Origin: an uncultured bacterium
Lineage (GTDB): Bacteria; Bacteroidota; Rhodothermia; Balneolales; DATFMH01
Reading direction: 5' to 3'
DNA: 64,000 nt
Assembly: GCA_963712305.1 (NCBI GenBank)
Contig: CAVQHI010000001.1
Coordinates: 1,077,383 to 1,141,382, forward strand
Below the pieces are notes generated by a model, which saw only the letters and a list, made by a program, of their open reading frames with translations, searched no databases and had not been told where the DNA came from. Positions within the stretch are counted from its first letter, which is position 1; every line of letters begins with the position of its first letter. Made by a program: the position numbers and the translations under genes. Of the stretch, positions 14,299-36,846 are shown piece after piece.

Positions 14299-16332
14299 TC
14301 AATTAACCGTCGTATCATTGATGATCTTCTCAGCATCAGTGAAGCGATTGGATTTCTGAAGTGCCTCAATCAGGAAAGATCGCAGAATAGTATTATTTGG
14401 ATGTGTCTGGTAAAAGGTATCCCATCGCCTGCATAATTCATCAAGCGTACCAGATTTCTCGGCTATTTTTATGCTCATTCGGTAAGCAGACTCATCGGCC
14501 GGCGATAAACCTTCGATCTTTGCATATGTCAGAGCAGCCTTGTCATACTTCCTCTGTTCATAGTAAATGTTACCCAAGAACTTATTCGCCTCAATAAGTT
14601 TTGGTGCCCACCTGACTGCCAGTTCTGTTAATTCCAAAGCTCTTTTCACATTACCGGATTGATACTCGTGTTCCCCCACCAGGTAATAAAGAACGGCCGA
14701 TCCCTTGTACCGATGAAGTAACTTTTGAAGTACCGGATCAACCTTGGTTTTATCGAAGCTTGTTGTAAAATAATGGAAGACCGTTTCAGCTAATTCGTTT
14801 GTTGTATCAGGCTGCTGTTTTTGCTGGTATTCCCTTGCCAGGCTGTCCAGGTTTACAGATCCTGCAAACTGCTGTTTAAATTTCTTTTGTTCGTCTTCGA
14901 TCTTATGCAGACTGATGACGAGCGCCTTACGAGTCAGCTCAATTGACTCGTTTCCATTTCCGGGATGAACTAATACGGCTAAGCGGTAAAAAACATTCGG
15001 ATTGGTGCTTCCCAAGTCAATGGCTTTACGGTAATTAGTTCGTGAGCTGTCTTCTTGATCGAGGTGTTCGAATATTACTCCAAGGTGATAATATACATCG
15101 GCAACTAATTGGATCTTTCTCAGCTTTCTGTAAGTGCCCAGTGCTTCCATCCATTTACCTGCCTGCTCTTCGGTTTTCGCCTTCATTCTGAGTAGTTGAA
15201 TATTATCAGGCTCTATGGACGTCAAAGAACGAAGCAGTTGCGTGGACTCCAGAAACTTCTCATCTCTGTTATAACTTAAAGCTTTTTTGATGCCATACTT
15301 TACAGTATCACCAGATAATGTAACCAGCGTATCATAAACAGCACGCTCAGCCTCCCTTTGACCTGATTGTTTATACGTATCAGCAATTTTCTGATAAACT
15401 GACAGATCGTCCGGAAACTGCTTTTGCATTTTCCTAAGCACAATCATCTCCCTTTTAAAGCTTCCGTAATGCTCGTTCAGCTTGATCAGAGAACTATAGA
15501 TTTCCTTATTCTCAGGGAATTTTTGCAACAGGCTGTCATATACGACATTGGCCTCATTCATTTTATGCGATGAAGCTAACAGTTCGGCATAGATTACACC
15601 AATTTTAGGATTATCAGGCTCGAGCTTATACAAGATTCTATATTCCTTCAATGTCTCGTCAGCCTTCTTAAGTTTATATAGTGCACTCGCTTTCATGCGA
15701 TGAAGCGAGATATCGTTTGGATGATCCTTTAATAAACTGTCGCCCAGATTTTGAGCATCCTCCCAGCGTTCCTGATTGAGATAGGCCAGCACCAATCCGC
15801 GTTCGGCATTCAAACTGAGTGTATCGTATCGCTGTGCTTTGTACAAGTACGTCACTACCTCATCCCATTTCTTTACATCATTCGCATTCTGTGCCTTTTG
15901 GAGATAAATATTATAAAGACGCTTATTCAACATCTTCTGATCGTAAATCTCCGATTCTCCCTTTTTCCCAATCAGTTTTTCAAATGCACTGAGTGCCTCA
16001 TTCAAACGCTGCTGGCTGTATAAAGAATTTGCTTTTATCCACCTTAATGATGCATCATCCGGGAAGTAATGGAGTCCAAGGTTCGCTGAGTATTCTGCCA
16101 AATCAGACATTTCGGAATTTTGATAGCTGGCCGCAAGTAATACATAGGCTTTCCTTTGCAGCGAATCAGCCTTCAGTGATTGCTCGAGAGAATTGATGGC
16201 AGATTGATAGTTTTTATTATTGAAATACTGCATTCCTTCCTGCAGATATATTTCGCCGGAACCACTTTGAGCATACAGCGAATTACTCCCCAAAAAGAAA
16301 AATCCCAATAAGATCCAGCTAACTTTATACAT
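14299..16332 (-). CDS. secreted tetratricopeptide-repeat (TPR) protein; last gene of the giant-protein operon
   Basis: Signal peptide MYKVSWILLGFFFLGSNSLYA-Q. Many 34-aa TPR-like units run through all 677 aa (for example A..YL..G..Y....Y..A). Confidence 0.8.
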   Translation of the reverse strand: MYKVSWILLGFFFLGSNSLYAQSGSGEIYLQEGMQYFNNKNYQSAINSLEQSLKADSLQRKAYVLLAASYQNSEMSDLAEYSANLGLHYFPDDASLRWIKANSLYSQQRLNEALSAFEKLIGKKGESEIYDQKMLNKRLYNIYLQKAQNANDVKKWDEVVTYLYKAQRYDTLSLNAERGLVLAYLNQERWEDAQNLGDSLLKDHPNDISLHRMKASALYKLKKADETLKEYRILYKLEPDNPKIGVIYAELLASSHKMNEANVVYDSLLQKFPENKEIYSSLIKLNEHYGSFKREMIVLRKMQKQFPDDLSVYQKIADTYKQSGQREAERAVYDTLVTLSGDTVKYGIKKALSYNRDEKFLESTQLLRSLTSIEPDNIQLLRMKAKTEEQAGKWMEALGTYRKLRKIQLVADVYYHLGVIFEHLDQEDSSRTNYRKAIDLGSTNPNVFYRLAVLVHPGNGNESIELTRKALVISLHKIEDEQKKFKQQFAGSVNLDSLAREYQQKQQPDTTNELAETVFHYFTTSFDKTKVDPVLQKLLHRYKGSAVLYYLVGEHEYQSGNVKRALELTELAVRWAPKLIEANKFLGNIYYEQRKYDKAALTYAKIEGLSPADESAYRMSIKIAEKSGTLDELCRRWDTFYQTHPNNTILRSFLIEALQKSNRFTDAEKIINDTTVN

Positions 16333-16368
16333 CCCTTTTTAAACTTACGACATTCAGCGGAATCGATT

Positions 16369-18405
16369 TTATCGCGCTTTGAACTCTACAGGTTCACTAT
16401 TTTTGCTTTCATTTTCTGAAGTATCAACGGCTCTGACAATCAACCACTCCCCGTTTCCAATCCCCCTGTTTCTCAAATTATAATGATTTTGACTGATCAA
16501 TGAATCCGAAACCAGATGATAAACGCCTGTTTGCAGGTTAGATTTATAAATACGGTAACCGGCCATATCATATGTAACGACGGGACTCCATGTCAATACA
16601 AAATTATCCCCGTTCCTCCTGATCCGGACATTGGAAACTCTGCGTGGAGGCTGATGATCGCGAACCCAAACCGTGTCAGATGATACTGCCGAGCTCTTAT
16701 TCCCAGCCGAATCCACAGCTATCATACTGTACAGATACCGATGTCCGAGCTCGATTTGTTCATCCCTCCAGCTTGTTGTTCCCGGATTGAAGTGGCGTGT
16801 TTGTGAACTATCCGTATCTAGTCTCTTTTTTGATAGCTTATAGGTTGTTGCATCGCCGGATGCAGAGTGAGTCCAGATGACATCAATCCAGGCTGCATCA
16901 TGGTTACGGGCACGGAGGTAAGATGGAGGTTTCGGCGGAGTGTTATCTGGAACCTGATAAACGGTAAACAAAGTATCACTCACATTATTGCTGCTGTCAA
17001 GTGCAGCCAGACCATAGCGGTAGTAGGCACCCTCACTGAATCCCAAACCGCCGTTCCCTTTATCTGTAAATACGGTATCACGCATATTGGAAAGATTCAG
17101 TTTGAGAAACCCATCACTTGATGTCTCATTTCCGTTTTGACGCAGAATGATCCAGCTTTTAAAATCACGAGGCATCCTTGAAGGTGTCCACGACAGGTTC
17201 ACTACCGAGTCTTTGTAACTCACCGTGATCCTGCGTGGTGAGGGCGGTGGCGTTACATCCTGGTATAATGCAGAGCCGGGAACACTCTTCGGACTCTCAT
17301 TTCCAGCCGAGTCAACAGCCGAAACACTGTAATAGTAGACATTGCCCTGAACCGCAGTTGTATCGGTGTAACTTTGGTTCTCCGCCGGTAACAGTTGGTT
17401 TGTCATCAACGAGTAGCTGTCCTCCATGTTCTTTTTGCGATACACCCGATACCCTTCCACATCCAGGTCCTTGCTGCTTGGCCAGCTAACCAACATCCCC
17501 TTTTGTCCCGCCACTGCTCCAACGGCACTGATGACATTTGGTGGCACATTATCGATAACATTGTAATCCAACACCTCGCTGGGTTCACTTTCCTGGCCCG
17601 TGATTGAAACGGCCCGGACGAAAAAGTGGGCGGTCACTCCGGATCTGTCCACATTGAAGGTATATTGGAATTGCTGCTTGTCTGTCTGCCTTAATATGAT
17701 GTCGGGATCGTTAATGAGCTGAATATTCCCGTTATTATCCTTCTGATATACATTAAACCGAATTACATGATCATCATTTTGAAGATTGAATGACGCATAT
17801 TTCCATTTCAGCGTTATCAGATTGCCTTTATTTTTAGCAGACAGATCAGTGGACGTCGTCATCACGTGTGGCTTAAGCGTTACCTTTTTGTCCAGGATCT
17901 TTCCCGTGGGATTCCCGATATCATTCACAAACTCTATGTGGTAGGTAACTGTGGAACCTATTGATGCAGTAGAATCGATATAAAGCCGTCCCAAAGCCTG
18001 TGCAACTTCGGGAAACGTAAACGAATACAATCTTCCTTCAACAGGATGTGATCTCAACTTCAGAAACAAACTTTGCGGTGTATAAGCCTGCATCGCTTCT
18101 TGCAACACATCATATTGATCACCTAGAACGCCTTTCAACATTGCCGGATAGGCTACTGAAAGAATCGGCTCATCATTGAGCTTTTTGAGAGAATCCGATC
18201 CCTGATCTTTCCGGTAAATATTGAAACCATGTCCCGGCGGAGGCAGCATCGTATGATAAATATAGACTGCCTTTCCCCGTATAGCAATGCGCATTTGAGG
18301 CGAACTGTTATCCTGAGATTTGGCTGGTTTTATCTGACCCATAACCATCAAACAGCATGCACCGCAAAAGACGGCTAAAAACTTCCTGAATCCTCCAGAT
18401 CTCAT
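16369..18405 (-). CDS. secreted fibronectin type III repeat protein
   Basis: Signal-peptide-like N-terminus. At least 5 FN3-like modules are bounded by D-x-(T/V)-P-P-x-P linkers and end in Y.Y.v.AvD.sGNeS-type strands. The ATG lies 2 nt after the giant gene's stop codon. Confidence 0.8.
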   Translation of the reverse strand: MRSGGFRKFLAVFCGACCLMVMGQIKPAKSQDNSSPQMRIAIRGKAVYIYHTMLPPPGHGFNIYRKDQGSDSLKKLNDEPILSVAYPAMLKGVLGDQYDVLQEAMQAYTPQSLFLKLRSHPVEGRLYSFTFPEVAQALGRLYIDSTASIGSTVTYHIEFVNDIGNPTGKILDKKVTLKPHVMTTSTDLSAKNKGNLITLKWKYASFNLQNDDHVIRFNVYQKDNNGNIQLINDPDIILRQTDKQQFQYTFNVDRSGVTAHFFVRAVSITGQESEPSEVLDYNVIDNVPPNVISAVGAVAGQKGMLVSWPSSKDLDVEGYRVYRKKNMEDSYSLMTNQLLPAENQSYTDTTAVQGNVYYYSVSAVDSAGNESPKSVPGSALYQDVTPPPSPRRITVSYKDSVVNLSWTPSRMPRDFKSWIILRQNGNETSSDGFLKLNLSNMRDTVFTDKGNGGLGFSEGAYYRYGLAALDSSNNVSDTLFTVYQVPDNTPPKPPSYLRARNHDAAWIDVIWTHSASGDATTYKLSKKRLDTDSSQTRHFNPGTTSWRDEQIELGHRYLYSMIAVDSAGNKSSAVSSDTVWVRDHQPPRRVSNVRIRRNGDNFVLTWSPVVTYDMAGYRIYKSNLQTGVYHLVSDSLISQNHYNLRNRGIGNGEWLIVRAVDTSENESKNSEPVEFKAR

Positions 18406-18407
18406 TA

Positions 18408-21400
18408 TTAATTCCCAAATGAACTGTTAATATTATAATTATACACCGGTTTATTAACCTGTACTTTCTCGCTTTGGGCACCGCTCAGCCAAACTACCCG
18501 GGTCAACCCATTTCCATTAGTGATACGAATCCCCACTTCAAGATTTCGATAAAGTGTAATCATATACGGATACACGCCATAACTGAATGTTATTTCTATT
18601 GAGGTCGACTGTCCGGCTGGCACCAGGTCCGTAATTGCAACCAGGTCGTGCCATTGCCCCGAGCTTTCGTTACCGACTGTAGTAACCTTATACTCAACCC
18701 GGCGAATACCCGATTGCGGATCTTTGATGTTGCTCACAGTCAACCGGGCCCGTTTATTAGACAAGCTGCTAAGGTTCACCGTTGGTTTGGCCGGTATACT
18801 TTTATCAATGACAACAGGACCGGTTACCGCTGCGGTTGAATTCATGTTCTGTTTATTAAATGTGCGATAATGGACGTAGTAGGTTCCTGATGACAACTGA
18901 TCGTTTGACACATCTAACTCAGTTGCTGGTAAGTTTCCCGGCCACTGAATATCGCCCTTAGCCGCCTGTTGCCATACATAAATTCCGAATTCCCCTCCAA
19001 GCCCCGGTTGCAATTCATCAGTTGGACTGTCGGGCCAGGTTTTAATCGTTGGCTCCCCGGTTGCGGTCTGACCGATAGCGTACTCACGTCCTTTGATATC
19101 AGACTCAAGGTCTACCGATGGCTTTGTCACATACAGGCGAATGACGTCAGGCATTATCATCGCAGCAACTTTGGGTTTATATGGCGAGGTCGGATCATGA
19201 ATGACTACCGGTCCGAAACGATCGGATTTGCCATATAAGCCGGCATTATTTTGGGCCCTGACGAAGAAATAAAGCGAATCTTTAAAATTCAGTTTACCTC
19301 CTCTTAACTGTACCATTTGATTCTTTGTAGAATCAAGAGACATTGCATCTGAGAAAGCGGCACTGGTATCAGGATTATTCGTAATTACATATTGATAATT
19401 GTAGATGCCCGATTCACTATCTCTTGCCGGCGACCACTTGAGAGTGTAACTGGGTGTTGCGCTGCTGTAAGTGTACGTTGGTCCCTCCATTTGAGGCCTG
19501 TGTTGTACTACAGGAGTAGCCTGCCTATTACCGAATCCGTACACCTGGTATCCACCGCTGACAGGCTGATAAATATACACGGGTTGAATATCAGGAGCAG
19601 AAGGAGCCGTTCCATCATACATGACACCCGACTGTACATGCTTTTCCCTGCTTCGCAGTCCCTCGGAGTTCGTTGAACGAACGCTAACATAAACCGGGTG
19701 ATCGCTACTTAACCTCAGATCATTGGCCGTAATATGATATCTCACATTTGCCATTCCACCGTTATTGCCGCCGCTGCTCAATCGTTGTCCGTGAGCGTCA
19801 GTCCATTGCACGACATTCTGTCCCCCGGGATATGTTCCGATAGCATATTCAACCGATGCAATATCAGATTCCATATCGATCGTCGTGACATCAAACTCAA
19901 TCCTGTCTCTGTCATGAGACATGTATACATATTGCAACCCGGTATTGCTGTTACTGCCGGAGCCGCCAGAACCGTTATAGTTCGTTCCATTTGGCAGATT
20001 ACTACTCGTTGACATACTCAACTGGGCACCCGTAGTTGTTTTGGTCAAATCACCCACAAATCTCTGCGTTTTGTGATATGGGAATGTGACATATGGTGTT
20101 GACGGAGCTGTGTTATCATGATTAATAACATTCTGAGTGTTAGTTACAGAAGGTTCTGGCGATCCGGGGTCAACTGGAACGTCCACCGATGCCACTCTTG
20201 AAATAGTATTTCCTGCTGGTCCCCTCGCACGAACAATTACGCGATAATGTCCGGTTTTCTGTGATGAGGTCCTCTTGAAGGCATAGTAATCCAGATGATC
20301 CTCCGATCCCGCAGTAACCAAATTGCTTGAAAAGATCGATGTTCCGGTCCCCGGTTCAACCAGGATGCTATTTTCAACGACATCGCCGGTCGGATGAGAG
20401 CTGCTCCAGTTAATCTTCATATCATTTCGATAATCATCCTGATCATATTGCATCGTGATGTTATTCACCACTGGAGGTGCAAGCTGTTGATCAAGCTGGT
20501 TCATCTCCTCTTCGATACCGGCGGCTGCAGAATCACCCATCACTGATTTGCGCCAGTTAGCATACACGTCCATCATTCCATACAAGGTGGCCGTCATATT
20601 TGCTTTGATACTGTATATCGTATCCTCAAGCTCGGTGAAACGTTTATGCTTTTGCTTCAGATCGTTTTTGATCGTGTTATAATACTGGATGAGTGAGTCC
20701 GCCATCATCCTGGAATTGCTTTTCAGTGAATCGGCGCCATCCTTAACCGTTTTATACCAAAGCTCCTGGGCCGTGGTCCGGAACATATTTTTAAATGCCC
20801 CGGGATTATTGTTTGCCAGTGCCTGTCTCATTGCGTCTGCTGTCTGGCTCGAATCCGATGTCGCTTGTTGGTTATCGCGTGTCAGATGGTGGATGAAATA
20901 ACGACGCATTCTTGCAACTTTTATGGCCGTACTTTTATAGTCATCTTTGATCTGGCCATTACTGTTGGACATCGTATTAGTGATGTCGTCGATTGCAGAG
21001 TTTATCGATCCATGTAAGCCAGAGATTTGATTACCCACACTTTGTGCCCCATAATAGAGCTGCCATCTCCGATTGATGCGATAACTGTAAAAGTTGTTGT
21101 ACTCATGCTCCATATCGAGATAAGACTTCGCAACATCGTTTAGAGTCGGGCCCAAATACAATGTTATGGCAGGCAATACATGCAGTTCTCCGCCAGCCAT
21201 AAAACTTGTTCCCTGCGTTGTAATTGTAGCCCTTCCTGAAAGTGACTGATCGATTCCGGAAATCATAGTATAAACCGTATCAATCACACTCCGATACTGC
21301 TGGTCGAGCTGCGCGATGCTCTGTTTGTAATTTGCCAGATTATCGCTGTTTTGATTTGCAAGATCAGTATTTACCGAGAATGAGGGCGCACTGCCACTAC

Positions 21401-24400: not shown

Positions 24401-27400
24401 GAGTAACTGTATCGACCAGCATCTTGCTGTAAAACTCACCAGACAGATTGATTTCTTTCTGGTTACCCATTTTCACCTGAGCACCATCCACCGACATAAC
24501 GAACCCACTGTCCGGAAGGAAACTGTGCGAGACAAGAGGATGTTGCGGCACTTGAGCAGGTAATGAATGCGAATATTCACCAGCTTCAATTGTTGCCTTC
24601 TCAAAACCATCGGGACCAAGGGTAACCTCGTTTATGGCTACAGGTACGTCATTAAGAGATTGAGGCAACAGAATTTTCAGTGAAGCGGTCAGCTTGAACG
24701 GTTCGCTCGATTTTTTGGCATACTTAAGGGCTGTAATTGATAACGGGACCTGCATCAATGGTTTCAGATCTATCGGATTCTGTGTCAGATCGGCCTGAAT
24801 CTGACCTCCCATGATCTGGAAGGAACTGTTCACATCAACATCCTGGAATGTGACATCGATAACCGGCGGATTTGCATTATCCAACCCGGCAAGCACCAGT
24901 TTTACCGACTTGTTGGCCTTGGTTGACAGCCGCATTCCGCCTTGAATAGATTGCGATTGAACATTCAGAGGTTGATTGGGCCCGTCCCTAAGCACAAGGT
25001 AAGCAACATCCCTGGTCGGCAGCCCTAAAGTATCCGGCAGAGGAACTGCAGCCACAATGTTATCCATATGGAAACCCTGCTGGTCGTAGTAGGCTACACG
25101 TTCAGTCTGTCCATTCTGTTCCACTTTATTAATGTCAGCACGTCCCGATGTCACCTGTACCGGTGCAAGGCTCATGCGCATATTATGGAACTGCACCTGG
25201 TAATCGTCACCGTTCTCGCCGCCAAACCGCATTGCCACCGTACTCTGACCATTGACCAGCATGCCGTCTTTGTCGATGGTTACTTGCTGGGGCATCACAA
25301 AACGAACTCCCGGATCAACAGAAATAGGTGAGTTAGGATCGACGACGGTCCATTTCAAAGGATTGAAGCCGACTTCCATGCCAAAACTATCCTGGAACTG
25401 AATATTGCCGGATGATATGGTACCATCAGAGAGATTTAGGGCCAGGTTATTGAAGTTTGCCTGAACTGTTGCACCATCGGCATTCAGCGTTCCTCCCCCT
25501 GTCAGCACAAAACCGTTATTGGTGATGGCAGCCTGCTGAACGGTAAACTTGAGTAAAGAATCTGTTGATGGGTAGTACCATATAAAGGGACCGGGAATAT
25601 TTATGTTACCCGAAAGCACCTGTCCGTTGAGAACATCCAGCATTAGATTTCCTGATGCTGTCACTGGAGTCGTATTCTGGGTCTTCACGGTAGCCGTTGC
25701 TGAACCCTGCATGATCAGTGTCTGTTGATTTCCACTAAAACCAAACTGGAGCTGTGAACTTCCAAAACTCAAACTCAGCGGACCCATAACCAGTTGACCG
25801 CAGGGAGTGAAGTTGTCAACCGTGCCGGTGAGCCCGCCGAGTTTGTTGAGGCGTACTGCAAACGTTTTTTCCGGGCAGTTTTGATTCGGAGAGACAAAGA
25901 AATCAGGCTCCTGCAGCTTGCCTGATAATTCGATATCGTAATCCTGAGTACCATCCGGAGCCCGTCCAAGGTTACCTGCTATTTGTTGTAGAATGAGTCC
26001 TGTATGCGAACTCAGAGGCAGATTTATCCCATTTTCAAAAGTGTATGGATCAAGCTGTCCCTCAAGAATTCCATTATTGAAACCAATATCACTCAGCGTC
26101 GCCGAGGCGTGTGCCAGTCCGGGTGATGTCTGGGCAAAACCCGGGAATGTCAATTTGAAATCAAGATGAGGGATCAAACCGACCAGATCACCCGGACTGA
26201 ATGAGAACCAGTGTAGTGTGTCCTTCCGTGTTCGGAAAGCCAGTGGTTTCAGATGAAATGCCCCGACATCAAATCCAGTCAGGTTCAACGGCGGTGTTGA
26301 ACTGTCGTTTATCTCCTGTTGCGGAATGATGATGCCGATACCACTCTTAATCTGTACATTTCGCAACGGAACCGTAATAGGATCACCTTCATCCGGAGCC
26401 AACGTGAAATGGACATTGATATCAGCCAAATAGCTTAATCCCTGCTGTTTCGACCAGTTTAGATTGAGTTGGTCAATCTTATCGACGGCAACTTTGAAAT
26501 TTCCCATTTCGAGTTTGGGAAGTGTCGCGTTTGCCTGGCTGTTGAATTGTGTCACAGTCATCTGATCCTGGGTCCAATGGAGTCCAAGACTCGCAGATGC
26601 TGCCGCCTCTCCGTTCAGAGCATTGACGTGGAAATCTGCATTCATATCGAACGAGAACTGTGAATTGGCAGGATCTGTCGCAGGAATATCAAGATCTCCG
26701 GAGATTGAGTTAACATTAAGTGCCACCCGTGATTGATCTTCAAGAGGCAGCTCTGCATTCATGTCAGATAAATCCACCTGCGAGTGGAGATGGCCATTTA
26801 ACCCGGCTGCAATAGTAATGTGTCCATTATCTCCAAGACTATGATCAAGCAGAGCGATTTCTGATTTTAACTGCAGTTCGGGAGAACCGCCATTATTACC
26901 AGGGTCGCTAAACAAGACCTGGTACACCTTTGCGGGAACACCTAACCGGTTCAGGTCAAAAGCGGCATTATCTTCGGGAACATCTACACTGATCGTGCCA
27001 CTCATCACATCACCGGTCGAGGGATTAATGTCCACATTATTCAGATTGACATCTAATTGGGGTGCCTGTGCCAGGTTGCCTTGTAAGGCTGGAAATACTA
27101 ACGGTAAGGATGCCCCCGGTTTTTTTGTAATTCGCAACGTGCCATCCGGCTGCCGCTGCGTTTGTACCAGCAGAGTGTCGTTTCGTTTAATTTGCAGATA
27201 AGCGATCGATTCAAGCGGCAAAGGTATTCGTTCAGGCAGAAACTGGTTTCCGAAAAATGCCGGATCGGGAAAGAAGCCGTTGGTCGTTGCGTAACCGACA
27301 CGCTGACCCTTCCAGTCTAAATCGACTTCTCCGTTCTTAATTCCGAACGGCTGTAATGCGATAGCGAAATCATCCGAAAACTGTGCCCTCAAGCTGTCCA

Positions 27401-30400
27401 GTTGCCACTGATCATAATGCAATTCAGCCTTGGATGATCCGGTAGCATGAAGACCAAGCGTATCAATTTGAAGAGTACCTTTCAGCGAGGCCATAAGTCC
27501 GGGGTTCAGTGACAGAGTGCCTGGAAGCGGTTGTGTGTGAAAAGAAAGATTCTGGCTGTTGTCGATTCCTGCCTCGAGTGCAAAACCACTGTCGATAATC
27601 ACACGGCCACTTTTTACATCAAATGTTTTCCAGTCGAGAACCAGGTTATCAAAGGTCGAGCCAATTTGTTGGTTTCCAACCTTCAGCGTTTGCCGACCGT
27701 CGATATATAGTCCATCTTTGGTGATCTTCGCCCTGTTGATATGAAAGACCATAACCGGGTTATCCTTTGGGATGTTCCAATCGAACGGATGATTCATCTC
27801 GAAGTCGACTTTAGAAAACTCTCCAGTCATCAGATCGATTGCTACCTGACCGGTCACAGATTGATTATCTCCTAAATCCAGAGTAGCAGTACTGCTCAAT
27901 ATCGCCTGTTGTTGACCATCTTTCACATTGAAGTTTATATCGGCCTGATTAATAGCAGCGGTATACGGACCAATTGCTATCGGACAATCAGGTGCGACGT
28001 TTGAGATGTTACCCGTAAGTGTACCGTCCTGATGAAGTGCCAATGTCGCCTGACCCAGATCTGTCTGATGAGGTGGATCACAAGTGAATGGTTCACCCAG
28101 CAATAAACTTGCAGAGAGTTTTACATTACAGTCGACTTCCGGCTGATCCCCTAATGCGATACCAATGTTTCCACCAAGTTTGTGAAGAATTAAGGCATAA
28201 TCTCCTCCCAGAGGGATTTTGCAGTTGTCCAGCACTGTGCCCTTCAAGGCTCCTGTCAGTTGCCCATCTTTGAAACCGGCATCGGACACGGTATAGTCTC
28301 CGGTTTTCAAGCAAGATGGAAATGTGTCAGGAAGATCATCGAATCCAAACGTGAAACTGAAATCCAGATTCCAATCATCATCCTTCCACTGGTCACGGTT
28401 AAAAAACGGGAAGTTTACTTTAGGAAGATGCAGTGATACCGGCTTGATGTGGATACCATCGAAATGCAGCACCGGTATTCCAGCAAAATCGTCCGATGTG
28501 AGGTTAATATCAGGAAACTGCATCCCTTTGTCAGACGAAAGCTTCAGTCCTTTCAGCTCTGGCAGCGACAACGGAGTCAAGCCGGTAATAGCCGGCCAGG
28601 CATCGAAACTGAATCCGAAATCCCATTTCGATTGTGATGATGAGGATGGATTGTAACCAAGATGATCAAGGTTGATCTTATCCAGTCCAAGTGACATCAC
28701 ACCGAGATTAAGAGTTGGATTGGGGATTTTGCAGTCTGGTATCAATTTGCCGACCGAAACGCCTTTACTGTCTCCCAGGCGGATGGTTGTTAGTCCGCCG
28801 CAATAATCGCTGGTATTCTCTTTGAGTTTGAATCCAATCTGGCTTTGAATTGCCAGGTTGTAGTGTCCTTTTCCTCCCTTTAGCGGATAATGAATATCGC
28901 CCGTAAGATTGAGCATCTTGAACCTCAGCAGCTTCGATTGAGGAACAGGGTAAAAAACCTTTGAATCCCGGCAATCTATCGCGGCCATCACTGTATCCTC
29001 GCGAAATCCAAGCAACGGGATATCGCAAGTTAGTTCACCGCTAAACAGGCTCACCTGACCCGATGCCATCAAATCTGCTTCAGGAAACTGTACAGATAAA
29101 GTGTTGACCTCGAGTTTTACCGGATCCTGACCGTAGGCGAAGATAGGCCCACCTTCATTTCCGGCTTCAATCTTGCCTGACAATCCCTGGGAGTTAATCT
29201 GTAATTTCCCCTTACTTTTATATGTTTTACCATCGGGACCAACAATATCAGCAGTGGCTGTCATCCCACTGCCCAGATCCCAGCTAAGCTTATTCAGATG
29301 GATCAGATTATTTGACGGGACAAGATCCTCAGGCAGTGAAAAATGGCCGGCTACGACCTGTCCACCTAGTACAACCGGCGGATTCATAGATCCTTTCTGA
29401 ATCGAAAGATTTCTCACATCCACTTTGACGATAACAGGCTCAGGTTCGGTTGTAAACCGGAGGAGAAGAGTTGCGGTCCCATTCAATATATAATTACTGG
29501 TCAGTTCCTTATAATTCAGATTTTTCAAATTTACCAAGTCAGCAAAACCGGGTATCAACGGAATATTTTTCAGATTTTTTAAAGATTGAGATAGCTGGTT
29601 TTCTGAATTATTCAGTCCGAAAATGAATGTCTGGATCTGGCTTTTCCCGCTATCTTTAAACGGAATCAATCCTTCCGGATCGGTGGCTGTTATTTGCCAC
29701 GCATACTGATGACCTTCTTCCAGAGGCAGGTTATTGGGGGTGTAGCTGTAAGTAGTCTGATTGTTCAGTACGTGATCGGCCGTCGGTCGGTTGCTGTTGA
29801 TCGCCTGAAGTGGAGTTTGCCCGTCAACGATTTCCACGATCTTCAGGTGATAATCGATTGGTAATCCCTGTCCTGTTACAACCGGTGTCCATGCAAATAC
29901 GGGTATTTTCTGAGTAACATTCGATTCATTGGAAGGACTCACCAGAATAGGCGGCTGCGGCAGTCTCACAGTAAACACGGCAATCCCGGGGACTACACCT
30001 ACAGCCCCCGTCTCTCCTTGTGGGATAGCTCTGATCTCCATGCGATAGGTTCCCTCCGGAATGTTGCCCCCCTGGACGACCTGTCTTTTAATTTTCTTAT
30101 CAAGGTTATTTAGAACATCTGAGATAGATTTAGGAAAGGATACATCATCAAAAAAGGAGGAAAACGTGTACATGCCCGGTGTATACTGGACCGGATCGGA
30201 AGTCATATCTATAAGATTATCTCCATTTCGCGATAGCTTCATCTCAAAACGAAAACTTTTCGGTAACTGAGAAGCATTGGAATACATGAACTGAACCCGG
30301 TATAAACCTACCCGAAATTTCTTTTCCAGCACTCCCAAATATGGCGATGAGATCTGAGATGGAATACCAATTATCTGAACCTGGCTTGTACCCTGTGCCT

Positions 30401-30500
30401 GCACGGAAGTTGTCGACACTACACTCAAAAATCCCACAAACAGGACTAATCCTGTCAGGGTTTGTAATATTTTTTTTATCGTAATTCTCATTCTCCTCAT
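18408..30500 (-). CDS. giant (4,030 aa) secreted modular protein of unknown function
   Basis: A single uninterrupted 12,093-nt ORF. GAGG lies about 9 nt upstream of the ATG. Signal peptide ...VVSTTSVQA-QG. From N to C: Ig/FN3-like N-terminal modules, about 2,300 aa of beta-rich sequence, a Gly/Ala/Val-rich segment, a ~480-aa helical Q/N/K/E-rich segment, and five C-terminal Ig/FN3-like modules. Confidence 0.9.
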   Translation of the reverse strand: MRRMRITIKKILQTLTGLVLFVGFLSVVSTTSVQAQGTSQVQIIGIPSQISSPYLGVLEKKFRVGLYRVQFMYSNASQLPKSFRFEMKLSRNGDNLIDMTSDPVQYTPGMYTFSSFFDDVSFPKSISDVLNNLDKKIKRQVVQGGNIPEGTYRMEIRAIPQGETGAVGVVPGIAVFTVRLPQPPILVSPSNESNVTQKIPVFAWTPVVTGQGLPIDYHLKIVEIVDGQTPLQAINSNRPTADHVLNNQTTYSYTPNNLPLEEGHQYAWQITATDPEGLIPFKDSGKSQIQTFIFGLNNSENQLSQSLKNLKNIPLIPGFADLVNLKNLNYKELTSNYILNGTATLLLRFTTEPEPVIVKVDVRNLSIQKGSMNPPVVLGGQVVAGHFSLPEDLVPSNNLIHLNKLSWDLGSGMTATADIVGPDGKTYKSKGKLQINSQGLSGKIEAGNEGGPIFAYGQDPVKLEVNTLSVQFPEADLMASGQVSLFSGELTCDIPLLGFREDTVMAAIDCRDSKVFYPVPQSKLLRFKMLNLTGDIHYPLKGGKGHYNLAIQSQIGFKLKENTSDYCGGLTTIRLGDSKGVSVGKLIPDCKIPNPTLNLGVMSLGLDKINLDHLGYNPSSSSQSKWDFGFSFDAWPAITGLTPLSLPELKGLKLSSDKGMQFPDINLTSDDFAGIPVLHFDGIHIKPVSLHLPKVNFPFFNRDQWKDDDWNLDFSFTFGFDDLPDTFPSCLKTGDYTVSDAGFKDGQLTGALKGTVLDNCKIPLGGDYALILHKLGGNIGIALGDQPEVDCNVKLSASLLLGEPFTCDPPHQTDLGQATLALHQDGTLTGNISNVAPDCPIAIGPYTAAINQADINFNVKDGQQQAILSSTATLDLGDNQSVTGQVAIDLMTGEFSKVDFEMNHPFDWNIPKDNPVMVFHINRAKITKDGLYIDGRQTLKVGNQQIGSTFDNLVLDWKTFDVKSGRVIIDSGFALEAGIDNSQNLSFHTQPLPGTLSLNPGLMASLKGTLQIDTLGLHATGSSKAELHYDQWQLDSLRAQFSDDFAIALQPFGIKNGEVDLDWKGQRVGYATTNGFFPDPAFFGNQFLPERIPLPLESIAYLQIKRNDTLLVQTQRQPDGTLRITKKPGASLPLVFPALQGNLAQAPQLDVNLNNVDINPSTGDVMSGTISVDVPEDNAAFDLNRLGVPAKVYQVLFSDPGNNGGSPELQLKSEIALLDHSLGDNGHITIAAGLNGHLHSQVDLSDMNAELPLEDQSRVALNVNSISGDLDIPATDPANSQFSFDMNADFHVNALNGEAAASASLGLHWTQDQMTVTQFNSQANATLPKLEMGNFKVAVDKIDQLNLNWSKQQGLSYLADINVHFTLAPDEGDPITVPLRNVQIKSGIGIIIPQQEINDSSTPPLNLTGFDVGAFHLKPLAFRTRKDTLHWFSFSPGDLVGLIPHLDFKLTFPGFAQTSPGLAHASATLSDIGFNNGILEGQLDPYTFENGINLPLSSHTGLILQQIAGNLGRAPDGTQDYDIELSGKLQEPDFFVSPNQNCPEKTFAVRLNKLGGLTGTVDNFTPCGQLVMGPLSLSFGSSQLQFGFSGNQQTLIMQGSATATVKTQNTTPVTASGNLMLDVLNGQVLSGNINIPGPFIWYYPSTDSLLKFTVQQAAITNNGFVLTGGGTLNADGATVQANFNNLALNLSDGTISSGNIQFQDSFGMEVGFNPLKWTVVDPNSPISVDPGVRFVMPQQVTIDKDGMLVNGQSTVAMRFGGENGDDYQVQFHNMRMSLAPVQVTSGRADINKVEQNGQTERVAYYDQQGFHMDNIVAAVPLPDTLGLPTRDVAYLVLRDGPNQPLNVQSQSIQGGMRLSTKANKSVKLVLAGLDNANPPVIDVTFQDVDVNSSFQIMGGQIQADLTQNPIDLKPLMQVPLSITALKYAKKSSEPFKLTASLKILLPQSLNDVPVAINEVTLGPDGFEKATIEAGEYSHSLPAQVPQHPLVSHSFLPDSGFVMSVDGAQVKMGNQKEINLSGEFYSKMLVDTVTQKMRRLHFSAGYDITNDKWNFASNAQQLGDEYGVGDHWLRMKVDGLTIAVSPQELAMVIDGRLQAPELLGDEFELSIQNLRIGTGGVSVNQIDTHALTPQDVDILNGFAHMRLDSLDLNYQQNVLTLTMGGNLHALDRDFSFKNLSIGSNGDVSIQNAGLEFLNQPQPILGNYASLTSLKLLMQNSSLKLQAQGEVTLPAPISDSSNFTVAVDKDGNVTTQGPEFDLSQHPSYDLGDFATITLTDAGINMDLQDMSQTSFYTSADLTVKNPSSGNSTIHIGSVSGQHGFEYQDGHTTWHVEPNSNLDFNRQFFDIGVSNISIPDASNFGLKFDGSASLNMSDIDGGFSFANMIIDETGVASIGDFTGGHLKTLGDKVQIEVGKFTYKESGTITVRKNNSGANDDPHDIDDAQEETINVSNYLDFGPGQNTNSALSITIGSISGSVQHIYFYQTTDDNGVHFAIQKASLTFGDHANINADMQFDSGDNGILLKVAGDGSFSIGQSTSEIAAFGEISTLNQKLKFGVFVKVKATVPVVPGVITMTGIGGGFFYNASSRDIQEVIDLTGYETVASQSSDQGMNYTPPWSGNQNYTFAVIVNVDMGIAGSTGAYAAEGSALAVITDTNVLIDAHAIVLKQDGKEGRMSMKGGFSLSIRLSDVNGGNQININADGFVAINAHEAITGKLEVSFKAVLKSDNSVTWAFKGNGDLSLLKLAEASTKIIVCQDGFYFDVGVHSGFDFKIITIKSGFDAQVFWVKSKDLFGAYAEIGIHASVVGGLAKLDATAKGAFIKEHRNYLLYAAASAHVQVAFVFNGTVGVWVSLRNGKFDGGTGRNKRYDELVDKARKEAEDMQNKANEAGDAVQDAINTPQLPELTQQELMAAGLQLLTKDNYQRQNIMQRWIDNEKDITPQKQGYFTQPAPGAFRQVKQIVTNFNNHYTSSGVFQLYQSVLENETEDLVQKATPVIKRLRNTKAKAIQWETEEQSFADQISSPIQNVNTDWSSGSAPSFSVNTDLANQNSDNLANYKQSIAQLDQQYRSVIDTVYTMISGIDQSLSGRATITTQGTSFMAGGELHVLPAITLYLGPTLNDVAKSYLDMEHEYNNFYSYRINRRWQLYYGAQSVGNQISGLHGSINSAIDDITNTMSNSNGQIKDDYKSTAIKVARMRRYFIHHLTRDNQQATSDSSQTADAMRQALANNNPGAFKNMFRTTAQELWYKTVKDGADSLKSNSRMMADSLIQYYNTIKNDLKQKHKRFTELEDTIYSIKANMTATLYGMMDVYANWRKSVMGDSAAAGIEEEMNQLDQQLAPPVVNNITMQYDQDDYRNDMKINWSSSHPTGDVVENSILVEPGTGTSIFSSNLVTAGSEDHLDYYAFKRTSSQKTGHYRVIVRARGPAGNTISRVASVDVPVDPGSPEPSVTNTQNVINHDNTAPSTPYVTFPYHKTQRFVGDLTKTTTGAQLSMSTSSNLPNGTNYNGSGGSGSNSNTGLQYVYMSHDRDRIEFDVTTIDMESDIASVEYAIGTYPGGQNVVQWTDAHGQRLSSGGNNGGMANVRYHITANDLRLSSDHPVYVSVRSTNSEGLRSREKHVQSGVMYDGTAPSAPDIQPVYIYQPVSGGYQVYGFGNRQATPVVQHRPQMEGPTYTYSSATPSYTLKWSPARDSESGIYNYQYVITNNPDTSAAFSDAMSLDSTKNQMVQLRGGKLNFKDSLYFFVRAQNNAGLYGKSDRFGPVVIHDPTSPYKPKVAAMIMPDVIRLYVTKPSVDLESDIKGREYAIGQTATGEPTIKTWPDSPTDELQPGLGGEFGIYVWQQAAKGDIQWPGNLPATELDVSNDQLSSGTYYVHYRTFNKQNMNSTAAVTGPVVIDKSIPAKPTVNLSSLSNKRARLTVSNIKDPQSGIRRVEYKVTTVGNESSGQWHDLVAITDLVPAGQSTSIEITFSYGVYPYMITLYRNLEVGIRITNGNGLTRVVWLSGAQSEKVQVNKPVYNYNINSSFGN

Positions 30501-30544
30501 TTCACTGCCTCTGATTTAGGCTCCATATTTTTGGGGAAATTCAT

Positions 30545-32299
30545 CTAAAATCGATGCCGGTATTGAAATCTTCCCTGAAGTTCTTTGAAATTCTGACCTC
30601 GCCCCTGCAGTGCTTCATTATCCAGGAAACGGACAGATAAATTGAATGTATCTTTGCTCGTCAGCCGGTATGAAGCCGAGCCGTTACCCATGATTTGTGC
30701 CATCTTCATATTTCCGGCAGTCACGTTCACACTGGGTGTAGTCTTGTTTGTGTTATATCCCCCATTCAATGAAAGTGTCAGTTTGTTCTGAAGCATGGAA
30801 TAACTCAGGCCAGTGTTAAAACCAATGTTATTGATATCCACTGAACTGGAGTGGTTTTTCATGTAGTTGACCGACGCATTGACTCCCATCCCGCTCGGCA
30901 GCGATACGCTATATGACATCATCCCGTTAATTGTGCTGGACCCAAAGTTCGAAGGAACATTAGCATTTGGCTGAGAAGACTGGTCAAGACTGGTTTTAAG
31001 GTTCAGATACGACAGACTCAGCGAGATCGTATGCATTAATGCTCCTGCCTGCATAGACAGGGTCGGCTGCACCATTATGTTATTGGAAACCTGTGTTTGC
31101 CCCAGGCCTGCCGTCAAAGAATCGGCAACCCCGGCCGTAGGATTTATCTTATGAATAAAAAGGTTGTAAGAGGTATTGACCGTGAAAAAATTGGAAAACT
31201 GGGTTTGAAGATTGCTACCAAGCTGAGTCGTTTTTTGGGTGGTCAGACGGGTTCCGTTGAGATTATCCCGGCCAATAGAAAGGTTGTTGGACATCACGAC
31301 ACGGCCACCGGCGAGTTTAAATTTAGGGGCGATACTAACCGTCTGCTGATCATCCCGTATCTGACTGACTCCAAGTGATGTAAAACCGGGTTGAATACGT
31401 TCCAGTCCCAGGCTGAGGGCAAATACATCTAGATCAAGAGCGGCCTTGGCATTTCCCGCATAATTCACTCTCGACCCTGTTCGCGGTTTGAATAATTTTG
31501 ATATAAATGGGGGAACCCCCGCACTTGATAGATCCAGCATTTTAGCATTTAAATCACGAGTATAAACCGAAACCGTAACCTGACTACTTATATTGAAAGC
31601 ACCTTTAAACATGGATATTCCAAAATCCGGAGTCAGTTGAAGGTTCTCTTGCGGTGTATCCACTGCCGTTGTATCCAACGAATTCTTATCATCAATGGCA
31701 TAGAGAGCATTGATGTAAAAATGACTCTTCTCCTCATCTCCAAAACCGATTTTCCCAGCCATCATCCACTGACGATAGGCAATTTGTCCTAAGCCAACAT
31801 TTGGTCCCGGCCTGACGGCACGCTGTGATCGCCCGCCGGTAAGTTCCAGATGAAAAGTACCCGGTGTGAGCTTAAGATAACCGCCCCGTATGGTTGCTCC
31901 GCTCAGACTGTATTTCCCCATCTGTGGACTTACGTCACCGACCTCAAGATGAAGCCAGTGCCAGTTTCCGTTAAAACCAAACCGATTCATGCTTTGCCGG
32001 AACCGGGAATTGTCAGATGAGTAGAGAAGATTCAGACCTGAATGAATCCCAAACAGTGAAAAGGAAACATTAGCATTTGCACGGGCAAGGAGCCCCGGCT
32101 GACGGCCATTAATTCCGTAGGCCTGGTACGCTTGTGTTGTAAACCCAACCGATCCGCCCGCCGTAAAAGGCTGAATATTCGTATCCCCTATACTGCCTGT
32201 GCTGATTTGAGCATCTGCCGTGTTTACAACAAAAAAGCATACCCCGAACATCAGCATTGCCAATGCTACAAGGTTAATCCTTATTTTTATTCGAATCAT
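30545..32299 (-). CDS. putative outer-membrane beta-barrel protein (584 aa from the ATG at 32299)
   Basis: Signal peptide MIRIKIRINLVALAMLMFGVCFFVVNTADA-Q with AAGGTGAGG just upstream. The sequence is rich in G/S/N/T/Y, shows alternating-hydrophobic strand patterns, and ends in C-terminal ...FQYRHRF (the terminal aromatic typical of OMPs). Confidence 0.6.
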   Translation of the reverse strand: MIRIKIRINLVALAMLMFGVCFFVVNTADAQISTGSIGDTNIQPFTAGGSVGFTTQAYQAYGINGRQPGLLARANANVSFSLFGIHSGLNLLYSSDNSRFRQSMNRFGFNGNWHWLHLEVGDVSPQMGKYSLSGATIRGGYLKLTPGTFHLELTGGRSQRAVRPGPNVGLGQIAYRQWMMAGKIGFGDEEKSHFYINALYAIDDKNSLDTTAVDTPQENLQLTPDFGISMFKGAFNISSQVTVSVYTRDLNAKMLDLSSAGVPPFISKLFKPRTGSRVNYAGNAKAALDLDVFALSLGLERIQPGFTSLGVSQIRDDQQTVSIAPKFKLAGGRVVMSNNLSIGRDNLNGTRLTTQKTTQLGSNLQTQFSNFFTVNTSYNLFIHKINPTAGVADSLTAGLGQTQVSNNIMVQPTLSMQAGALMHTISLSLSYLNLKTSLDQSSQPNANVPSNFGSSTINGMMSYSVSLPSGMGVNASVNYMKNHSSSVDINNIGFNTGLSYSMLQNKLTLSLNGGYNTNKTTPSVNVTAGNMKMAQIMGNGSASYRLTSKDTFNLSVRFLDNEALQGRGQNFKELQGRFQYRHRF

Positions 32300-32418
32300 A
32301 AACCTCACCTTCTCACACTCACGCCACAACCTCACAACAAATAACCCCAACCATTTTAATCCCACATAAACAGATCGTGTTCATTACCGGGGTTGTCATA
32401 AAAGTCCAGACTCTTCTA

Positions 32419-32967
32419 TTATTTAAGGCCCACCATGACCGCAGAGCTCGATATCTCTTTTCGTGAATCTCGATTTACCGGAATTACGGCCACTACATAC
32501 AGCATCTTAAAACCACCACTCTTTTGGAGGGCCAAATTTGGGACCCACCGATCGTCAGGAAACCAATGAGCATCAGGAAACCATTCATCACCCGGCAAGT
32601 AACTATCATCAGGAAGGTAGGTGCCGGATGGGAAATAGGTACCACTTGGGAAAAACGGGCTCTCACCGGAAATCTCGAATGAACGACTTTTGTAGCTTTT
32701 AACAATTTTACCCTTTTGAACAATTGATGTTACCAGTATGCATTTAACCGATTCTTGGATATCAGCCTTTACATATATGCTTCTTTCGACCAGTTGCTGG
32801 AGTTTGGAACCATCCATCTTTTGCCGGGGAAGCTGCATCTTAACAGCCATTTTTAGCTGACCGTACTGGGCATTTGCATTACATGTAAAAATCAGCAATA
32901 AAACGTTTAAAACCACTGCACAAATATTCCAGCACCGAATATTTTGTCCCTCTTTTTGAGCCTTCAT
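32419..32967 (-). CDS. small secreted protein with six tandem aromatic hexapeptide repeats
   Basis: AAGGAAAAGG lies upstream of the ATG at 32967. Signal peptide ...LLIFTCNANA-Q. Repeat block: FPSGTY FPSGTY LPDDSY LPGDEW FPDAHW FPDDRW. Confidence 0.6.
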   Translation of the reverse strand: MKAQKEGQNIRCWNICAVVLNVLLLIFTCNANAQYGQLKMAVKMQLPRQKMDGSKLQQLVERSIYVKADIQESVKCILVTSIVQKGKIVKSYKSRSFEISGESPFFPSGTYFPSGTYLPDDSYLPGDEWFPDAHWFPDDRWVPNLALQKSGGFKMLYVVAVIPVNRDSRKEISSSAVMVGLK

Positions 32968-33726
32968 TTTCACCTTTTCCTTATGAATAATTCCAATTAT
33001 GAACAGTCTATAAATTCACGTTGATGACGTATTATTTTTCGAAAGCATTAAATAAGTATTCTCCATTTTTATCATTAAAATGATCCATACGTTTCATCTA
33101 AATTTTACTTTTAAAAAGGTATTAAACCCTAACACTTTTTATCTTTAAACACATAATATGCTATGATTTGTCGTGTAATCATGGTTCATACAGAAGTCAG
33201 AATAGTAAACCAGATCTATCTTAATATCTGAGAAAACCGGGGTGAACCAATTGCGCAACACACTCCTCTATTACTGACTTCAACCAACCATTTTTATTTC
33301 TATTAGGCCACAACTAGAAATAAAGGTCAAAAATTAAACTTAAATATTCAGTGTGGATATATACCGTATTTTTAGATAAGAACTGTGCAAATGCACACTT
33401 TTATAATAGTCATGTAGGAAATAAATATGATACCAACTGATATTATATAATATTTACTAAATCTAATAGTATGATAATATTTTCATGACCTTTCTCATGA
33501 CTTTATATTTAATATTCCTAATAGTTATATACATGCATATAAAGTATATTACGCTCAAGTGAAAAAAATTTTTTGGGGAAAATTTTAATTTGTTTGGGTG
33601 AAAATACCGAGACCTCATTAGACAGCAATCTAAATTTTACGTGATTACGCTTATTGATTTCTTTGAGTCAAACAGACTATCCTCTTAAATACATTAGTGC
33701 AACTTTTTGGGGTTAGAAAAGGGGTT

Positions 33727-33984
33727 ATGAATACAAAACTAACATTGAAACCCGGTCAACGGGGAACAAAAAAGCTACTTAAGAAGTATGGCAACAGGCT
33801 CATTTGTGTGCGCTATCGCTACGATGAGGAAAAAAAGTTGCGATATAAAACTGTGGAGTTAATCGTCGATGTTTCGGAATGGGAGCCGAAAGAAGATGCG
33901 ATTAAAGATGAATCCATTCATCCTGAAATAGAAGAATTCAGCATTCCAGAAAAAAAGAAAACGTTCGACGGTAATTCTAAATAA
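33727..33984 (+). CDS. small basic conserved hypothetical protein (85 aa)
   Basis: MNTKLTLKPGQRGTKKLLKKYGNRLICVRYRYDEEKKLRYKTVELIV... I recall similar small proteins (KPGQRGTKKL...VCVRYRYD...KTVELIV) in unrelated bacteria but cannot name the family. It is the only credible ORF in the AT-rich gap. Confidence 0.45.
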   Translation: MNTKLTLKPGQRGTKKLLKKYGNRLICVRYRYDEEKKLRYKTVELIVDVSEWEPKEDAIKDESIHPEIEEFSIPEKKKTFDGNSK

Positions 33985-36036: not shown

Positions 36037-36047
36037 CGGAGATCACA

Positions 36048-36407: not shown

Positions 36408-36417
36408 AGAAACTGCT

Positions 36418-36837: not shown

Positions 36838-36846
36838 AGGTGAATA

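Follow-up and report, generated by a model that had tools for sequence, protein, structure and literature searches.

In a 64,000-nucleotide stretch of DNA from an uncultured bacterium of the Balneolales (hereafter the window; GenBank assembly GCA_963712305.1, contig CAVQHI010000001.1, positions 1,077,383 to 1,141,382 of the forward strand), we examined a minus-strand gene cluster that encodes a predicted 26-strand outer-membrane beta-barrel, a giant protein of 4,030 amino acids (aa), a protein with FN3 domains and a protein with TPR repeats. The cluster is a real and conserved one that is so far uncharacterised. It brings together two families without described relatives, those of the barrel and of the giant, with FN3 and TPR accessories, and both its families and its architecture are new. 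As to function, we propose that the four-gene module may form a Sec-dependent, barrel-mediated export or anchoring pathway whose cargo would be recognised through a conserved N-terminal module, here called the head; we place this reading a little short of an even chance. No description of such a system was found in the literature.

The linkage of the barrel gene with the giant gene was examined in genomes and in metagenomes. In every genome examined (n = 4) the barrel gene was followed by a giant open reading frame (ORF), of 3,927, 4,040, 5,083 and 4,024 aa. When genomes were scanned with a seed from the central part of the giant, complete clusters were recovered, and the order barrel-giant-FN3-TPR was found at five loci (L006, L007, L014, L015 and, in R. 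halophilus, L011). Permuted orders were also found, specifically giant-FN3-TPR-barrel at L008, giant-FN3-(236-aa TPR-like)-barrel at the 70%-GC locus L018, and giant-FN3-barrel at six metagenome loci. A metagenome search with a barrel profile derived from a tight alignment returned 62 loci, of which 50 carried enough flanking sequence for the neighbouring gene to be assessed. The barrel gene adjoined the gene for a giant or for another head-bearing protein at 48 of these 50 loci, directly downstream in 42 cases and in a permuted order in six; this count includes L049, which was added by hand as its genes overlap. The two exceptions were L056, where the contig begins at the barrel gene, and L080, a 26%-identical outlier. 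Overall, barrel, giant and FN3 protein occur together across Balneolales and Rhodothermales, and giant-family proteins are also present in Ignavibacteria. At two permuted loci, the gene after the barrel gene encodes another fibre-like surface protein (L053, 11812-14190; L055, 6427-10176), one of them with an Ig array of the ASH/DUF1573/HYDIN type and the other with collagen triple-helix repeats and a Peptidase_S74 intramolecular chaperone domain.

An earlier note, made from the letters of the window alone, had described five co-directional minus-strand genes encoding 182, 584, 4,030, 678 and 677 aa, separated by only 119, 44, 2 and 36 nt. The ORFs were found at these sizes and positions (Table 1) and the four spacers were reproduced. 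The co-occurrence of barrel and giant in other genomes, which the note had put forward as a check, was borne out by the strong synteny described above. Its broader view of a self-contained, all-exported module outside the described systems stands as far as synteny and the comparisons with those systems are concerned, but the conserved set comprises barrel, giant, FN3 and TPR genes and not five genes. Judged from gene order across the related loci, the conserved unit is one of four genes. The fifth, the 182-aa ORF, had no homologue in 14 related genome loci or in the 62 metagenome loci. It lies within a stretch of about 1.1 kb that lacks a counterpart in the closest relative, L016, which has the same neighbourhood. 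Its product, a small repeat protein of the module in the earlier note, has a signal-peptide-like N-terminus and carries FPSGTY, LPDDSY and FPD..W repeats. Its exact sequence was absent from the protein collection searched and it had no Pfam or NCBIfam match; the ORF may be a lineage-specific insertion or may be spurious.

The 584-aa product had been called a beta-barrel in the earlier note, and modelling agrees. An AlphaFold2 model built from 61 homologues contained 26 strands (pLDDT 88.4, pTM 0.76). The corresponding DSSP string shows an alternation of short turns (2-5 residues) and loops (2-29 residues, mainly 7-15), which is the usual outer-membrane topology with the 2-5-aa turns on the periplasmic side. 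The model is devoid of a plug, a POTRA domain or any periplasmic domain, and the protein ends in ...YRHRF. Homologues were numerous, with 137 at E<=1e-3; every named one is annotated as 'hypothetical', and their hosts include Rhodohalobacter, Halalkalibaculum, Natronogracilivirga, Fodinibius, Cyclonatronaceae and Rhodothermales metagenome-assembled genomes. The window itself stems from a metagenome-derived genome, which the named homologues assign to Balneolales. The barrel had no sequence match in Pfam, NCBIfam or PDB. By structure, the top match in a Foldseek search of PDB was MtrB (6r2q_B; E 1e-10, TMq 0.51, about 10% identity), followed by SlpA of Deinococcus (TMq 0.33), the ushers FimD and PapC (TMq 0.23-0.43) and LptD (TMq 0.24-0.27); porins and TonB-dependent transporters were also matched. 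With identities near 10% and without a match to any family profile, the likeness of the modelled barrel to MtrB, SlpA, ushers and LptD is one of resemblance and not of membership.

The nearest folds, those of MtrB, the ushers and LptD, are all wide barrels in which a partner protein sits in the lumen or is passed through it. To our knowledge, such wide barrels are always plugged, whether by LptE, by MtrA or by the plug domain of the usher. Since an unplugged 26-strand pore would be hazardous, as the pairs LptD-LptE and MtrB-MtrA and the usher plug indicate, we infer by analogy that some partner would occupy the lumen of the barrel.

A candidate for such a role is the head of the giant, which is modelled as two FN3-like domains (Table 1) and ranks with the best-conserved regions of the giant. 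Just after the signal-peptide cleavage site it carries the signature (I/V)P..L.SP(Y/F)..(D/E).E.N, the core of which was present in 63 of 97 full-length giants as against 5% of control windows. At four loci (L048, L049, L050 and L076) the barrel gene is followed by a gene for a protein of about 2,000 aa in place of the giant, and then by one for an FN3-like protein of about 700 aa. In these systems, which are paralogous to that of the window, the mid-size proteins share the N-terminal 300 aa or so with the giant at 39% identity. Outside the head a single marginal match of 130 aa was obtained (E 0.005), and the mid-size bodies, which contain CarboxypepD_reg domains, are unlike that of the giant. 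A conserved N-terminal module that accompanies the barrel even where the body is exchanged would be expected of a targeting or docking domain. On the strength of this pattern of conservation, we propose the head as a candidate recognition or plug module for the barrel. Two further loci hint at tandem arrays, possibly with shared barrels. At L012 a 706-aa FN3-like gene lies directly upstream of the giant gene and is itself preceded by a partial 822-aa ORF, possibly the terminal part of a cargo of the mid-size kind, while at L040 an FN3-like match lies about 3 kb upstream of the barrel-giant pair.

The giant itself belongs to a closed family. The same protein was called on independent assemblies, namely on contigs from ENA (L001), from Logan and from NCBI (2.4 Mb). 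A HMMER scan with aa 1501-2700 returned 235 clusters (E<=1e-3); among the 150 that are listed, almost every protein has a length of 3,800-6,400 aa; one member is named in Melioribacteraceae (Ignavibacteria) and further members come from high-GC genomes. Homologues are collinear over the whole length at 30-49% identity. The giant had no Pfam or NCBIfam match above noise, and PDB sequence searches with it were empty; for the family, including a PDB profile search and searches with individual members, FN3/Ig domains were the sole matches in Pfam and PDB.

The body that follows the head is made of long antiparallel hairpins and contains an ancient duplication, A and A', detected by hhalign with a probability of up to 99.8%. 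This duplication is visible only in profile-profile windows, and blastp of the giant against itself revealed no repeats. The strands of the body are amphipathic, with a mean Kyte-Doolittle hydropathy of 1.64 on one face and -0.83 on the other. Further along, the Gly/aromatic-rich domain contains the motif GGGFFYN (aa 2579-2585), invariant in an alignment of 12 full-length giants. This domain did not match the barrel family by hhalign, and with respect to the idea that it might be membrane-embedded, an amphipathic-strand score on aa 2560-2870 was non-discriminating. The adjoining charged segment of the giant (aa ~2871-3350) is probably alpha-helical, judging by its composition. It gave sub-threshold PDB profile matches to helical bundles and coiled coils, and a weak Chou-Fasman estimate, although this method is crude, as the all-helical TPR protein scored just 0.04. 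The C-terminal Ig/FN3-like array is supported by titin FN3 matches and by fn3/Ig Pfam matches in family members; across the family, the C-termini are heterogeneous Ig tails. Compared with L016, the giant is 49% identical and the barrel 75%, so that the giant diverges faster, and larger relatives of the giant carry extra Ig-like copies, which are common among surface proteins. Both the faster divergence and the extra Ig-like copies fit surface exposure.

Two minor observations were made on the ORFs of the family. Of 97 full-length giants, 35 end in F, W or Y, aromatic residues that make up 8.7% of the composition. The C-termini are often alternating, for example ...NLNLTF or ...QFNF, and bear a likeness to the beta-signal of outer-membrane proteins or to a donor strand; not all members show such an ending, the protein in the window terminating in ...SSFGN. 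A 4,360-aa ORF at L013 that appeared to fuse giant and FN3 protein was rejected, since it arises artificially from a masked stretch of N (around 16400-16580) in the GTDB record.

All four proteins of the module carry signal peptides of the Sec/signal peptidase I type. The earlier note had assigned a Sec-type signal peptide ending in A/S-Q to each of the five products, and each does begin with one hydrophobic segment followed by A/S-Q. Neither polytopic inner-membrane features, also declared absent in that note, nor any other transmembrane-like segment were found beyond the N-terminal one in any product. The signal peptide of the barrel ends ADA-Q (the hyphen marks the predicted cleavage site), the homologues of the FN3 protein have A-Q signal peptides without a lipobox, and the A-Q junction was present, again without a lipobox, in all homologues inspected; the cluster encodes no lipoprotein. 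A 'Q-rule' has been described for signal peptidase I substrates of Bacteroidetes, and a high Q-value has also been given for Ignavibacterium (PMC5837995). The A-Q junction fits this rule, which argues that the signal peptides are probably cleaved and do not serve as signal anchors.

The two accessory proteins were assigned as before by their domains, and the earlier FN3 and TPR calls were upheld. The FN3 protein is an exported multi-FN3 protein (Pfam fn3, E 1.3e-12). Its homologues, at 31-40% identity, are encoded directly after the giant wherever a genome or metagenome locus extends far enough, and at L018 gene annotation places a 665-aa fn3 protein after the giant. The TPR protein, whose TPR call stands at E 2e-26, matched TPR_19, TPR_16 and TPR_14 at E 1e-24 to 1e-26 and is presumed to be a periplasmic chaperone or scaffold. 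Its gene follows the FN3 gene at the five loci with the order found in the window and at L008, while at L018 the short 236-aa TPR-like protein replaces it.

Membership of the cluster in described systems was assessed by hidden Markov models, profile comparison, motif searches or fold comparison, and the outcome was negative for every system. For the barrel, no Pfam or NCBIfam match at E<=0.1 was found to the TpsB families (ShlB, POTRA_2, Bac_surface_Ag), and neither the giant nor 11 other family members had a TPS domain (Haemagg_act, NPNL/NPNGI motifs). The hhalign probability was 0.2% between the giant family and E. coli TamB and 0.1% between the barrel family and TamA, and Pfam gave no DUF490/AsmA match. 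In the giant family there was no match to Autotransporter or IAT_beta. With respect to the type IX secretion system (T9SS) as well as SprB, neither SprB repeats nor a PorP/SprF-type barrel was found with Pfam and NCBIfam, and the giant had no T9SS C-terminal domain (TIGR04183 or Por_Secre_tail). As to the type I secretion system (T1SS), there were no GGxGxD motifs and no HemolysinCabind match, and the cluster is flanked by an operon for oxaloacetate decarboxylase and by a gene for a Na+/H+ exchanger. A motif search of the five products for RTX, LPXTG and CXXCH was negative, in line with the earlier statement that RTX and LPXTG are absent. No sequence match was obtained to the usher family PF00577, the likeness to FimD and PapC being that of a generic barrel, nor was there a Pfam match to MtrB_PioB or a Pfam or NCBIfam match to LptD/OstA. 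Lastly, the giant and the family members tested had no RHS_repeat/YD matches. The systems that had been named beforehand as possible refutations, that is SprB with a T9SS C-terminal domain, TamA/TamB, TpsA/TpsB or a T1SS adhesin, were thus all negative, as were the usher and the autotransporter.

In its logic the cluster is closest to two-partner secretion, to which it is unrelated in sequence, while the fold of the barrel is closest to those of MtrB, LptD and the ushers. As in two-partner secretion (FhaC/FHA, ShlB/ShlA), a very large, Sec-dependent, beta-rich cargo is encoded beside a dedicated outer-membrane barrel, a conserved N-terminal module of about 250-300 aa follows the signal peptide and precedes a variable body, and no ATPase is encoded. 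However, TpsB has 16 strands and two POTRA domains whereas the barrel modelled here has 26 strands and lacks both POTRA and an Omp85 signature. Moreover, the beta-helical TPS domain and beta-helix body contrast with two FN3-like sandwiches and long hairpins, and here there are two extra conserved partners, the FN3 and TPR proteins. MtrB-MtrA-MtrC and LptD-LptE share with the cluster a 26-strand barrel with a wide lumen, which in those systems is filled by a partner protein. They differ in that the present cluster shows no sequence kinship, no haem-binding CXXCH and no N-terminal jellyroll as in LptD, and in that the candidate partner is 4,030 aa long. Chaperone-usher systems likewise combine a large barrel (24 strands in the usher), a periplasmic helper and Ig/FN3-like substrates, and ushers pass folded Ig-like domains; in contrast, the cluster lacks the plug, N-terminal and C-terminal domains of the usher, a PapD-like chaperone and pilin subunits, and its cargo is one giant chain and not a polymer. 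As with LapA-LapE, a giant adhesin-like protein could be held by its N-terminal module in an outer-membrane channel. LapA is however a T1SS substrate with RTX repeats, an ATP-binding cassette (ABC)/membrane fusion protein (MFP) pair and the TolC-like LapE, whereas here there is a Sec signal peptide, no RTX, no adjacent ABC/MFP genes and a beta-barrel as the channel.

We propose the following route for the products of the four genes. The proteins would be exported by Sec and cleaved at the A-Q junction, after which the TPR protein may hold or chaperone the giant in the periplasm. The head would then dock on or inside its cognate barrel, acting either as a leading secretion signal, in the manner of the TPS domain of two-partner systems, or as a stopper or plug that is retained, in the manner of LapA-LapE, LptE-LptD or MtrA-MtrB. 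The wide lumen could let the rest of the giant through to the surface, from the narrow body of beta-hairpins and the helical segment to the Ig/FN3 tail; adhesion, a coat or a fibre are candidate roles there. The FN3 protein might be a co-exported partner or a second or alternative plug. Put more broadly, and held more tentatively than the proposal for the module itself, this may be a new export or anchoring pathway of the FCB group (Balneolales, Rhodothermales, Ignavibacteria) in which a plug-less 26-strand barrel handles Sec-exported cargos of 2,000-6,400 aa through the head signature ...P.SP(Y/F)..(D/E).E.N, with the help of the FN3 and TPR proteins. That the barrel would be unrelated to Omp85, ushers, secretins, TolC or SprA is part of this broader reading and is advanced with the same reserve.

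Several points weigh against this proposal. Every step after Sec export, including contact between barrel and giant and the surface location, is one that we infer; the 'fibre or bridge' and 'surface' of the earlier note, and with them the place where the giant ends up, are conjectures of the same kind. The cluster encodes no energy source. The TPR protein is absent or unrecognisable at the six giant-FN3-barrel loci and in the mid-size systems. Scans for sigma-70 promoters and terminators performed at chance level, FCB-type promoters lying outside the models of the tool. The AlphaFold2 model of the giant covers aa 1-1100 from a 6-sequence alignment (pLDDT 69), so that the 2,500-aa body is partly modelled, and the body found no global structural match in Foldseek searches of PDB and BFVD. 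In addition, hydropathy (GRAVY) and LIVFM content of the giant equal those of E. coli TamB, so composition and amphipathicity do not separate the two proteins, and a groove or bridge architecture, doubtful as it is, stays compatible with that composition.

Among the alternatives, the one that survives best, though unlikely, is a lattice or sheath at the cell surface. Together, giant and FN3 protein would form a coat or an S-layer-like structure tethered by the barrel, as by SlpA in Deinococcus, and the barrel would anchor this structure while export proceeds by another route. SlpA is indeed the second-best Foldseek match of the barrel, the giant combines a probable helical segment with Ig arrays, and giant, FN3 protein and barrel are conserved together. 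However, SlpA is matched weakly, Pfam and NCBIfam gave neither SLH nor S-layer domains, and the giant shows no signal for an alternative export route, be it a T9SS C-terminal domain or a T1SS signal. A barrel-anchored lattice would amount to a functional variant of the proposed pathway, and the present data, which do not separate the two, fit either.

A trans-envelope or periplasmic bridge is doubtful in turn. Here the body of the giant would be an amphipathic beta-groove like that of TamB/AsmA proteins, moving lipids or other hydrophobic cargo, and the barrel would be its TamA-like partner. The long continuous beta-hairpins of the body, with a hydrophobic and a polar strand face, are what such a groove would present, and a barrel gene beside that of a long amphipathic beta-sheet protein of similar composition mirrors the arrangement of tamA-tamB. 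Against this, profile similarity to TamA, TamB and DUF490/AsmA is lacking, and the barrel has 26 strands, no POTRA domain and is non-Omp85. The giant starts with a cleavable A-Q signal peptide followed by its FN3-like head and not with a membrane anchor leading into a groove. It is also about three times longer than its TAM counterpart, and about 2,500 aa of sheet would, judging by how large TamB is, exceed the periplasm's width about two-fold. Finally, the C-terminal Ig array and the rapid divergence resemble those of a surface protein.

A looser association was also considered, in which the barrel, as a large porin or uptake channel of the ordinary kind, would simply share its regulation with a giant, adhesin-like protein that leaves the cell by a general pathway. 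We regard this as improbable, even though Foldseek matched porins and TonB-dependent transporters as well. The pairing of barrel and giant or head survives both shuffling of gene order and a change of cargo, and because the linkage survives permutation, mere co-location is unlikely. Furthermore, a free, plug-less pore of this width would be a hazard to the cell, and the giant bears no recognisable signal for a T9SS, T1SS or type II secretion system-independent route. Encapsulation of the RHS/teneurin type, with the hairpins wrapping into a YD-shell cocoon around a toxin, is very improbable, since the teneurin YD-shell matches of Foldseek (E 2e-7 to 5e-5) have a TM-score of 0.08-0.10 and low probability, RHS/YD repeats are not matched, the C-terminus is a conserved Ig array and not a variable toxin domain, and no immunity gene is present; the N-terminal model of the giant otherwise returned FN3 matches from PDB and BFVD, with teneurin and ROS1 at a TM-score of about 0.1.

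Should the proposed pathway hold true, it would provide a route by which giant surface proteins are secreted or anchored, a route built from families without described relatives. It would represent a second, independent invention of the scheme of a dedicated barrel plus an N-terminal targeting domain and hence a new 'type' of secretion system, analogous and not homologous to two-partner secretion. A function would thereby be given to at least 235 clusters of giant proteins and to 137 barrel proteins, none of the named ones being functionally annotated. The hosts of both families are bacteria from hypersaline, soda-lake and sediment metagenomes. The question raised is how a plug-less 26-strand barrel without an encoded energy source could handle a 450-kDa substrate. 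In practical terms, the head and its motif would be a candidate portable export tag, and cultured hosts exist in Rhodohalobacter barkolensis, R. halophilus and Natronogracilivirga saccharolytica.

Table 1 Genes of the cluster and parts of the giant protein, with positions in the window
Feature	Position in window	Strand	Residues of the giant	Basis or remark
TPR gene, 677 aa	14299-16332	(-)		ORF call
FN3 gene, 678 aa	16369-18405	(-)		ORF call; gene callers use a 641-aa start
Giant gene, 4,030 aa	18408-30500	(-)		Intact ORF
Barrel gene, 584 aa	30545-32299	(-)		Alternative starts give 570 or 606 aa; gene callers 570 aa, start 32257
Small ORF, 182 aa, outside the conserved module	32419-32967	(-)		
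Giant, signal peptide (...SVQA-QGT)	30396-30500	(-)	1-35	Sole transmembrane-like segment of the giant; A-Q conserved across the family
Giant, head, two beta-sandwich/FN3-like domains	29601-30395	(-)	36-300	AlphaFold2 secondary structure and Foldseek FN3-tandem matches
Giant, beta body, long antiparallel hairpins		(-)	~310-2870	AlphaFold2 strands of 10-19 aa, pLDDT 70-88 where modelled
Giant, body module A, beta-rich	26850-28943	(-)	~520-1217	AlphaFold2; hhalign duplication with A'
Giant, body module A', ancient duplicate of A	24666-26747	(-)	~1252-1945	hhalign, window against window
Giant, Gly/aromatic-rich beta domain	21891-23063	(-)	~2480-2870	Invariant columns in 12 full-length members
Giant, Pro-poor, charged, probably alpha-helical segment	20451-21890	(-)	~2871-3350	Composition
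Giant, C-terminal array of about five Ig/FN3-like domains	18411-20450	(-)	~3351-4030	Internal repeats at aa 3458-4000

The surroundings of the cluster were examined on both sides. Rfam and tRNA scans of the window returned no matches. Downstream, the convergent gene reported in the earlier note was confirmed and corresponds to a Na+/H+ exchanger gene, which is a single gene of 614 aa on the sister contig L001 and is split over three frames in the window (12213-14044, plus strand). Similarly, the M1 peptidase gene upstream of the exchanger (10097-11962, plus strand) encodes 624 aa in L001 and is present as three overlapping ORFs in the window. These split ORFs are either assembly frameshift errors or real pseudogenes. 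Comparison of window positions 8000-41000 with L001, a contig from the ENA, gave 99.86% identity with 13 indels over 28.5 kb. Positions 8495-11992 were only 93% identical, which suggests a strain-variable or recombined segment beside the putative operon.

On the other side of the cluster, the AT-rich gap of 1.4 kb that the note had placed upstream was recovered at about that length and with a GC content of 37% (positions 32001-34000, as against about 45% elsewhere), but it is not empty. It contains a plus-strand ORF for a basic protein of 95 aa (33697-33984; VQLFGVRKGVMNTKL...) that is also called as a gene on L001. This stretch has about 76% DNA identity in L016, the closest relative, in which the equivalent position holds a called gene of 83 aa; the 95-aa product is without family assignment. 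Beyond it and divergent to the cluster (34471-37983, plus strand) lies a Na+-translocating oxaloacetate/methylmalonyl-CoA decarboxylase operon, composed of carboxyltransferase, oxaloacetate decarboxylase (OAD) gamma, biotinyl carrier and OAD beta genes and followed by a major facilitator superfamily sugar transporter gene, a neighbourhood that is also present in L016.

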